A stretch of 64,000 bases of DNA from the NCBI RefSeq assembly GCF_004010195.1, contig NC_057757.1, forward strand, positions 7,466,942 to 7,530,941, written 5' to 3'. A program made the position numbers and the translations under genes. Under the pieces are notes generated by a model. That model had not been told where the DNA came from and searched no databases. It was given only the letters and a program-made list of their open reading frames with translations. Position 1 is the stretch's first letter; each line of letters opens with the position of its first letter. Below are positions 62,471 to 63,781 of this stretch, one piece after another. Origin of the DNA: Chiloscyllium plagiosum (taxonomy: Eukaryota).

Positions 62471-62882
62471 CTCTTGTCCCAGCCGGGTGGGATGTTATCT
62501 GGAAGTTTTGGTTGAAGTGGTTGCAATAGTTTATCTCGAAATAAAGAAGCTCGAGCAGAGATTTGAAAGTGGTGTACAAGGTTATGAGAGTCGAGAAACA
62601 AAACCCATTCTCCTCAGCAACAGTGTAAGGATCAAACTGACACAGATTTAATGGTTGAGAAAGAAATGTGGGGAGCGCACGGAGTAATGACTGGTGATGA
62701 ATGGAACTTGTTGCCTTCATGCATGGTAAAAGCTGCAAACATGAAGCATTTCTTAAGGATTTTACAGAAGGACCTGAAGGAAAGAAACCAGCCAAGCTAT
62801 GGTTACGAAGTGGGTCATTAACATTGATGGGATTGCTTTGCACAGAGCCAGTATGGACTCGATGGGTTGAATGGACACCACA

Positions 62883-63082
62883 GTTGAAACTTTATTGCTG
62901 GAACAGCACAGCAGGTCAGGCAGCATCCAGGGAACAGGAGACTTGACGTTTCGGGCACAGGCCCTTCTTCAGGAATGAGCAGAGAGTGTTCCCTGTTCCC
63001 TGGATGCTGCCTGACCTGCTGTGCTGTTCCAGCAATAAAGTTTCAACTTTGATCTCCAGCATCTGCAGACCTCACTTTCTCC
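62883..63082 (-). mobile_element. Young 200-bp palindromic Penelope-derived mini-element with hammerhead core
   Basis: Perfect 15-bp TSD TGAATGGACACCACA (62868-62882 / 63083-63097) and perfect 56-bp inverted repeat (62883-62938 / 62992-63047). Confidence 0.85.
62941..62976 (-). ncRNA. Minimal hammerhead ribozyme motif
   Basis: Minus strand ATTC-CTGAAGA-A-GGGC-CTGT-GCCC-GAAA-CGTC-AAGT: intact CUGANGA/GAAA core, 4-bp stem II, palindromic ACGU, GUC triplet. Confidence 0.72.
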
Positions 63083-63781
63083 TGAATGGACACCACAACC
63101 TCATCTCAACATCCCAACATTGAGGGGAGGTGACAGTCCTCTGTTACTGTCATTGGAGTATTATTCCAGAGACGGAGGCAATATTCTGGGATCACAGGGG
63201 GCTTGAATCTTGCAGATGAAGACATTTAAAATCAATCTACAGGGAAAACATCTGATCTTAAGTTTCTGATGACCAGAAAAAGCTGCTGATTGTCAGAAGG
63301 ACCCATCTGCTTTTAAAATCGTTGAGTGAAAGAAACTACCGTCCTTACCTGGGCTGGCCTCCATGTGACTCCAGACCCACAGCAATGCAGTTGATTCTGA
63401 AATACTCCCCCTCCCACGGGCAAGAAGGGATAGGCGATAGATGTTGTCCCGCCCAGGCAACCCTCCACATCCTTTGAATGAGTAAAAGAAAAGCCACAAT
63501 GGGCCATGCTGTCAAAGCTCGATTGGATTCTTGCATCTTGAACCTACGTTGCTATGACAACCATTCCAGGCCCCAGGCCCATCTGTATAGCTCACTGTAC
63601 CATGACCACCAGCGGTAGGTTGGTCAGGTTCGCATTCTCCTACGTGACAAGGATGGGTGATTGACGGGACTGACAGTTTTACTACATGAATCTATCAACC
63701 TTGTGACCTTGTCACTTTAACAAGGTTATTGTGTCCTTAGGTTCATTTCAAGAGAGGTCATGAAGGAAGAGGTGCTGAAAT

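Follow-up and report, generated by a model that had tools for sequence, protein, structure and literature searches.

A recent, polymorphic insert with a hammerhead motif in its loop: two probable Penelope-like terminal-repeat copies placed head to head

The locus described here raises the question of how a short hairpin with a hammerhead motif in its loop comes to lie between the two copies of a duplicated target: as a mobile unit in its own right, or as two ends of a larger element that were joined during insertion. It is found near the right-hand end of a 64-kb stretch of DNA, here called the window. The original prediction saw in it a young 200-bp hairpin retroelement belonging to a recently active, non-coding family. 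We find that the insert is real, recent and polymorphic, and we consider it likely that it is made of two 5'-truncated copies of a terminal repeat, arranged head to head by a single recent insertion of a Penelope-like element (PLE) reverse transcriptase-endonuclease. That it represents the insertion of a PLE end with an inverted copy we hold with considerable confidence; a two-primer route to this product is the one that we favour, more cautiously.

Anatomy of the insert and of its relatives in the window

The insert is 200 nt long and consists of an inverted arm of 109 nt joined head to head to a direct arm that, with its tail, measures 91 nt (Table 1). The perfect 15-bp target site duplication (TSD) and the perfect 56-bp inverted repeat that had been predicted are both present: 62868-62882 and 63083-63097 agree at 15 of 15 positions, with no extension possible on either side, and 62883-62938 pairs with 62992-63047 at 56 of 56, leaving a spacer of 53 nt (62939-62991). 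The stretch over which the two arms overlap makes up this inverted repeat, and the part of the longer arm that goes beyond it makes up the loop. In the sense of the ribozyme, the family unit comprises a leader, the hammerhead and a body, which stops at a short 3' end or, where the optional 35-nt tail is present, continues to a long 3' end. The short end of the inverted arm is the one also used by the arms at 26355, 16339-16421 and 54305-54397, and the first base of the direct arm is the 7th after the equivalent of the cleavage site. The 3' ends of both arms point outward and adjoin the duplicated target, whose AT content is only 53%. The junction between the arms (62991/62992) is asymmetric, with its 53-nt spacer and no palindrome, and the folding energy of the whole hairpin, -133.1 kcal/mol (z -16.7), was equalled in none of 200 shuffles.

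A miniature inverted-repeat DNA transposon (MITE) would likewise be short and non-coding, with inverted repeats and a TSD. However, on the right the repeat stops short of the end of the insert, being separated from the TSD by the 35-nt tail (63048-63082), the duplications of the family measure 14, 15 and 47 bp instead of having one fixed length, and single-arm, 5'-truncated copies exist; we regard a MITE as having practically no chance of being the correct reading.

Table 1. Position of the insert, its parts and the related copies, in window coordinates
Feature	Position	Strand	Evidence
Left TSD copy	62868..62882	.	15/15 identical to right copy; single in the empty allele (X6 record 9)
Inverted arm, 109 nt: 19-nt leader, hammerhead, terminal repeat to short 3' end, no tail	62883..62991	-	
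Minimal type I hammerhead motif	62941..62976	-	descriptor match and folding
Direct arm, 56-nt portion common to both arms, 5'-truncated	62992..63047	+	56/56 to inverted arm
26-codon open frame, ATG through tail; candidate start of a parent ORF	63004..63082	+	
35-nt tail, direct arm only, long 3' end of family	63048..63082	+	
Right TSD copy	63083..63097	.	15/15 identical to left copy
Older hairpin with one tailed arm and decayed hammerheads	16210..16421	-	arms 70/85 alike
Tail-end fragment, older subfamily	25616..25674	-	
Second young copy: one arm of 76 nt that stops at the short end and is cut off within stem II	26355..26430	+	73/76 identical to focal arm
Older hairpin with one tailed arm; C3 -> U and intact stem II in the hammerhead arm	54218..54397	-	arms 44/53 alike
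Older short hairpin, tail on one arm	54674..54815	+	14-bp duplication 54660-54673 / 54816-54829

Our census of the family covers the 64-kb window and found seven pieces, four of them hairpins. All seven are shorter than 215 nt, and none reaches more than 19 nt upstream of the hammerhead core. The insert and the 26355 copy (73/76 alike) form a young subfamily; the arms of the older hairpins are 81-83% alike. The tail is on exactly one arm in all four hairpins, and the short end is common to the tail-less arms of three of them and to the solitary 26355 copy, while the tail-less arm of the hairpin at 54674 stops about 20 nt before it. The frame of the 26-codon ORF is open in the direct arms of all four hairpins, across subfamilies. 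At three of the six sites where a TSD was sought we found duplications of 15, 47 and 14 bp, and three older copies had none. The 47-bp duplication around the 26355 copy (26308-26354 / 26429-26475) is perfect and unusually long; the sequence around it (26308-26475) resembles what we take to be a fragment of a LINE reverse transcriptase, and Pfam gave no match on the frame scanned.

All four hairpins have different junctions, so that the hairpin looks freshly built at each insertion. This speaks against the fixed 200-bp hairpin family, spreading as a unit, that had been predicted, and to which the other young copy, a single arm, does not conform either. A fixed element, a hairpin whose loop contains an active ribozyme, could account for the perfect repeat and TSD, and a few other junctions do recur above single-copy depth in the DNA runs described below. 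However, retrotransposition of a hairpin RNA needs one junction in many copies, of which there is no demonstrated case, and stem I of the focal ribozyme is not predicted to form. We therefore judge this explanation very improbable.

As a side observation, the left TSD copy ends in 11 nt (62872-62882) that match the reverse complement of the first 11 nt of the tail (63048-63058) at 8 positions, and counting this match the inverted repeat grows to 67 nt at 96%. The binomial probability at 0.25 is about 0.001, a post hoc figure, and by eye the other three short-end arms match at 4 of 11 positions at most. The match may be due to chance or to annealing of target and RNA.

The surroundings are rich in other repeats. 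The target site belongs to an old repeat (62217-62882) that recurs at 30488-31146 with 68% identity, and whose broken frames appear to resemble an LTR-retrotransposon integrase. About 250 nt to the right of the insert lies another very high-copy repeat (63329-63400), which we assume to resemble the central domain of Deu-type SINEs. Further away are a cluster of single-frame genes or pseudogenes of rhodopsin-family 7TM receptors (9074-9613, 16532-17482 and 52042-53040; Pfam 7tm_1, E 1.9e-05, 1.4e-19 and 3.7e-22), a fragmented, stop-rich remnant of a retrovirus-like element or LTR retroelement (about 33800-40400) in which an RNase H domain is recognisable (38260-38643, E 2.3e-13), and, on the minus strand at 28348-28986, a weak SCAN-domain match just below the Pfam cut-off (E 8.2e-06) in a frame that is probably a remnant of a Gypsy-type gag.

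Polymorphism and abundance of the family

DNA contigs from runs X5 and X6 (organism A) and X9 (organism B), together with the RNA run X21, were aligned to the stretch. The empty allele was found in X6, which comes from another individual labelled as the same species: record 9 goes from 62600-62867 directly into 63083-63257 with one copy of the TSD, a bridge of 268 nt on the left and 175 nt on the right with 4 differences in 443 nt, and it fixes the exact boundaries of the insert. Record 8 of X5 and record 21 of X9 depart from the reference at 63083 without entering the tail, which fits empty sites, but they are unbridged. The filled allele was not among the 24 pieces listed (111,541 further pieces were counted), the filled state being known from the window sequence alone. 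As a proportion of family-wide depth, the young subfamily reached 0.118 and 0.121 in the two runs of organism A against 0.0025 in organism B, where it is consequently about 45-fold scarcer relative to the family. This difference points to a lineage-specific expansion and, together with the empty allele, bears out the recent activity that had been claimed.

In the stretch examined, the terminal-repeat family is very abundant. The DNA runs each contributed between 27,851 and 41,411 contigs that fit it, a count that includes the second repeat at 63329-63400, and summed depths are not copy numbers. At 63083, hundreds of contigs in each DNA run part from the reference and continue into AT-rich, unrelated flanks, a sign that the long 3' end lies there; DNA depth falls about 4.5-fold immediately upstream of the core. 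Among the 15 joints listed (231 further ones were counted), 12 link two arms, at 12 different junction pairs, although most have fewer than 30 letters on one side and belong to a class flagged as unreliable. Five of the 15 begin at 62974-62976, which is 2-4 nt upstream of the core and coincides with the 5' edge of stem I; this may be the limit to which older copies align on a young reference. Two individuals share five of the 15, with depths of 37-340 where unique flank has 6-15, and some hairpins may consequently have been duplicated whole.

The hammerhead motif and the RNA of the family

The minus strand of the spacer carries, at 62972-62945, the string CUGAAGA-A-GGGC-CUGU-GCCC-GAAA-CGUC, just as had been read from it. 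In order, the 5' strand of stem I (62976-62973) is followed by CUGAAGA (62972-62966) and a bulged A; GGGC (62964-62961) and GCCC (62956-62953) form stem II around the loop CUGU; and GAAA (62952-62949), CGUC (62948-62945) and the 3' strand of stem I (62944-62941) complete the motif, with the predicted cut at 62945/62944. A descriptor of the minimal hammerhead matched three times in the window, compared with a mean of 0.005 in 200 dinucleotide shuffles. The core has the bulged base, G10.1-C11.1 and a self-complementary ACGU at positions 15.1-16.1, with positions 15.2-16.2 palindromic, and it is a hammerhead of the type that is ordinary for Penelope-type elements. The palindromic loop III that the original prediction ascribed to PLE hammerheads does not exist here: loop III is absent, and the self-complementary portion is the ACGU. 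The other two descriptor-type motifs, at 11530-11640 and 44422-44540, come from unrelated families of repeats, and each occurs once in the window. Stem II of the first has 6 bp and differs from the focal one, and its stem I has 4 bp; the second is decayed.

The hammerhead had been called intact, which is true of the core and not of stem I. There AUUC faces AAGU, the closing pair at the cleavage site is a C-A mismatch (A at position 1.1) and three pairs are left, so that the focal copy lacks the helix I of 4-5 bp, closed next to the cut, that a minimal type I hammerhead has. Stem II has a predicted pairing probability of 0.93; for stem I the value is at most 0.01, and at most 0.001 within the whole hairpin, and it climbs to 0.27-0.33 (about 0.3) with the letters of the 26355 copy. 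That stem I is weakened relative to this other copy is correct as far as the letters go (AUUC/AAGU versus GAAU), but the 26355 copy lacks the CUGANGA half and is no ribozyme, and the GAAU/AUUC pairing is a presumed one. Within the family, position 1.1 is G in the majority of the sequences in X5, X6 and X21 (87, 88 and 90%), yet in only 32% in X9, and the focal A would fit CpG decay. Folding thus predicts that the focal hammerhead is inactive or crippled, with the core itself intact.

Stem II is identical in both of the two undecayed family copies, with differing loops, which is conservation and not covariation. Dimer cleavage of such motifs was reportedly the subject of a study by Lunse et al. 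When two focal cores were cofolded, the double hammerhead was not the lowest-energy form, though folding of this kind cannot model the catalytic core. A search of Rfam over 62700-63300 (E up to 10) gave 11 matches, all under the gathering score and none of them a hammerhead; those to microRNA and SRP families reflect the long hairpin only.

RNA was examined in X21, a poly(A) single-cell run of which about 2% was read, and which is ill-suited to small, circular or non-polyadenylated RNA. Of the 2,677 reads fitting the stretch, 98% continue into unlike sequence. Family reads are on both strands, with an about two-fold excess read as element-sense. In this portion of the run there were no reads on the unique flanks of the insert, and read starts or ends did not pile up anywhere, the predicted cleavage site included. 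From the reads that run on, the lack of end pile-up and the lack of unique-flank reads it follows that the family is present in RNA mostly as a passenger. A transcript forming long double-stranded RNA, as originally envisaged, is not supported at this locus: a 56-bp duplex is predicted if the locus is transcribed, but the same 2% of X21 contains no reads on its unique flanks; hairpin inserts within host transcripts could nevertheless produce double-stranded RNA. Loose ends at 63081 and 63034 go on into single flanks with 178 and 195 reads (agreement 0.86 and 0.69), the flank at 63081 carrying an AATAAA-like signal, and a few family copies appear to lie in abundant host transcripts. RNA editing was considered and set aside, the A>G and T>C counts in X21 (17 and 15) being indistinguishable from copy divergence (10-14 and 9-11 in the DNA runs).

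These data bear on the possibility that a short non-coding RNA dedicated to this role, about 130-145 nt long and starting near the 5' edge of the hammerhead, is mobilised in trans, as a PLE-dependent SINE or a monomeric retrozyme, the hairpin still being made at insertion. It would suit the size of the window pieces (7 of 7 under 215 nt, none more than 19 nt upstream of the core), the 4.5-fold drop in depth just upstream of the core and the five of 15 listed joints that start at 62974-62976, and both non-autonomous elements derived from the terminal repeat (pLTR) and solo monomers have been described (10.64898/2026.07.22.740005). On the other hand, the depth drop may reflect divergence of subfamilies upstream of the core, in X21 neither starts nor ends of reads accumulate at any place and 98% of the fitting reads run on into unlike sequence, and the same short products would arise if an ordinary PLE mRNA were primed at its 5' repeat (PMC6765202; PMC2377424). 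We regard a dedicated short RNA as possible but doubtful.

The route of insertion and known Penelope-like elements

The 109-nt arm spans the predicted cleavage site and the whole core, and the arms of the 26355 copy and of the hairpins at 16210, 54218 and 54674 likewise run across the cut site. The templates of these arms were therefore uncleaved, and we propose that the hammerhead was a passenger, placed in the loop only because one arm extended further. By the two-primer route that we favour, the endonuclease would nick both target strands 15 nt apart, and from each 3'-OH a separate cDNA would be primed on sense RNA. Synthesis from the bottom strand would start at the long site, so that the tail is included and 91 nt are copied; the top strand would start at the short site, 35 nt further in, and copy 109 nt; and the two cDNAs, once joined and filled in, would give the hairpin and the duplication. 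The model for such a reaction is a PLE protein of the anole, which cuts and extends both strands from two start sites separated by the tail and was modelled as a dimer (PMC11167929). Its main substrate is uncleaved RNA, and ribozyme mutants insert normally (PMC11167929). The two family 3' ends at which the focal arms stop correspond to the two reverse-transcription start sites of that in vitro study (PMC11167929), and by analogy an anole-type protein might generate head-to-head products. The TSD/tail match at 8 of 11 positions counts against this route, since priming was reported to be independent of homology (PMC11167929).

Alternatively, the inverted arm could have arisen by self-priming or fold-back on an antisense template. 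This was put forward for rotifer PLEs from palindromes at inverted junctions (PMC3846280), and in the present family it would be in keeping with the RNA on both strands in X21 and with the hairpin at 16210, whose arms are only 5 nt apart. The focal junction, however, contains no palindrome and is made asymmetric by its 53-nt spacer, and the ends of the arms at two distinct family 3' ends are directly explained by the in vitro result on both strands. Self-priming consequently appears to us an unlikely origin of the focal arm. The origin of PLE inverted repeats was still termed undefined in PMC8557442.

The copies may be short because priming took place at the 5' repeat of an ordinary mRNA, because truncation was heavy, or because the template was a dedicated short RNA; the start of PLE mRNA lies in the pLTR (PMC6765202; PMC2377424). 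The boldest reading is that a still-inserting vertebrate PLE spreads mainly through a short hammerhead-headed RNA, with the hairpins recording twin priming from both target strands at two reverse-transcription start sites. We think this improbable as a whole, but if it were true the many polymorphic stubs would be a natural data set to settle how PLE inverted repeats form, and would show that ribozyme cleavage has no part in integration. The single insertion matters little in itself, as it repeats a documented PLE by-product pattern. Its value is that of a clean, dated specimen, and a young, abundant and polymorphic family allows the formation of inverted repeats to be tested on many copies.

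The insert is very probably the end of a PLE. It has a minimal hammerhead in the terminal repeat, a tail within the 30-40-bp range, an inverted 5'-truncated copy and a TSD of the variable kind, all features of PLEs with an endonuclease (EN+), and the predicted combination of a PLE-type minimal hammerhead with an inverted partial terminal repeat agrees with this anatomy. Membership rests on anatomy because no ORF for the reverse transcriptase (RT) or the GIY-YIG endonuclease is linked to the terminus: the insert holds no ORF with a telomerase-like RT and GIY-YIG endonuclease, and a six-frame search for words of PLE RT and endonuclease gave two isolated matches in stop-riddled frames. A 22-nt family pattern had no match in viral contigs, and a 21-nt pattern had seven in metagenome contigs, none of them extending past 21-25 nt and taken as chance; both collections hold little eukaryotic repeat DNA. 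With the peptide from the candidate ORF start, a short query of 30-43 aa, we obtained no match among 1.84 billion representatives, one candidate with no match at E 0.01 among longer proteins, and in the Atlas a best score of 0.85 to an unnamed protein, which is a lead at most. Mobilisation in trans, part of the original prediction, is thus neither shown nor needed, with no partner found either way, given that a coding element acting in cis would leave the same picture through its 5'-truncated products. The terminal-repeat family may already be named in Repbase or Dfam, or listed in the supplements of PMC4209133 or 10.64898/2026.07.22.740005.

The layout is another example of a known arrangement, the published PLE insertion pattern, in which an inverted 5'-truncated copy is combined with a 30-40-bp tail at one end (PMC8557442). 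In rotifer PLEs an inverted pLTR occurs with a 31-bp tail and TSDs of 8-10 bp, and pLTR plus tail contains the first 22 codons (PMC3846280), to which the short open frame running through repeat and tail is similar here. With EN+ PLE insertion units in general (PMC3846280; PMC8557442; PMC8969392) the insert shares the head-to-head copy, the tail on one arm, the variable TSD and the 5' truncation. In contrast to these units, it consists of the two ends only (200 nt), with no ORF between them, and the TSDs of the present family, at 14-47 bp, are longer than the 8-10 bp of rotifer PLEs (PMC3846280). As in the Anolis Poseidon element PAc (PMC11167929), there are two 3' ends separated by the tail, the template was uncleaved and the layout fits extension of both strands. 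The ORF of PAc starts at stem II, whereas here the candidate ATG comes 19 nt downstream of the predicted cut; the target, unlike that of PAc, is not strongly AT-rich; and in the available part of PMC11167929 head-to-head products are not shown for PAc.

The motif itself resembles the minimal hammerheads of metazoan PLEs (PMC4209133) in its CUGANGA and GAAA core, the bulged base before stem II, G10.1-C11.1, the self-complementary 15.2-16.2 and the absence of helix III. Its stem II has 4 bp against 7-8 bp in Schistosoma, and, unlike the hammerheads of that paper, it has a broken closing pair in stem I and an activity judged from folding only; single motifs and close motifs on opposite strands are also recorded there (PMC4209133). 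Non-LTR retrozymes, for which one cartilaginous fish was sampled, are similarly short, non-coding and pLTR-derived, with a type I hammerhead (10.64898/2026.07.22.740005). They form head-to-tail tandems with one ribozyme per unit, whereas the insert is arranged head to head and has a single motif, and we accordingly do not count it among the retrozymes as that study defines them.
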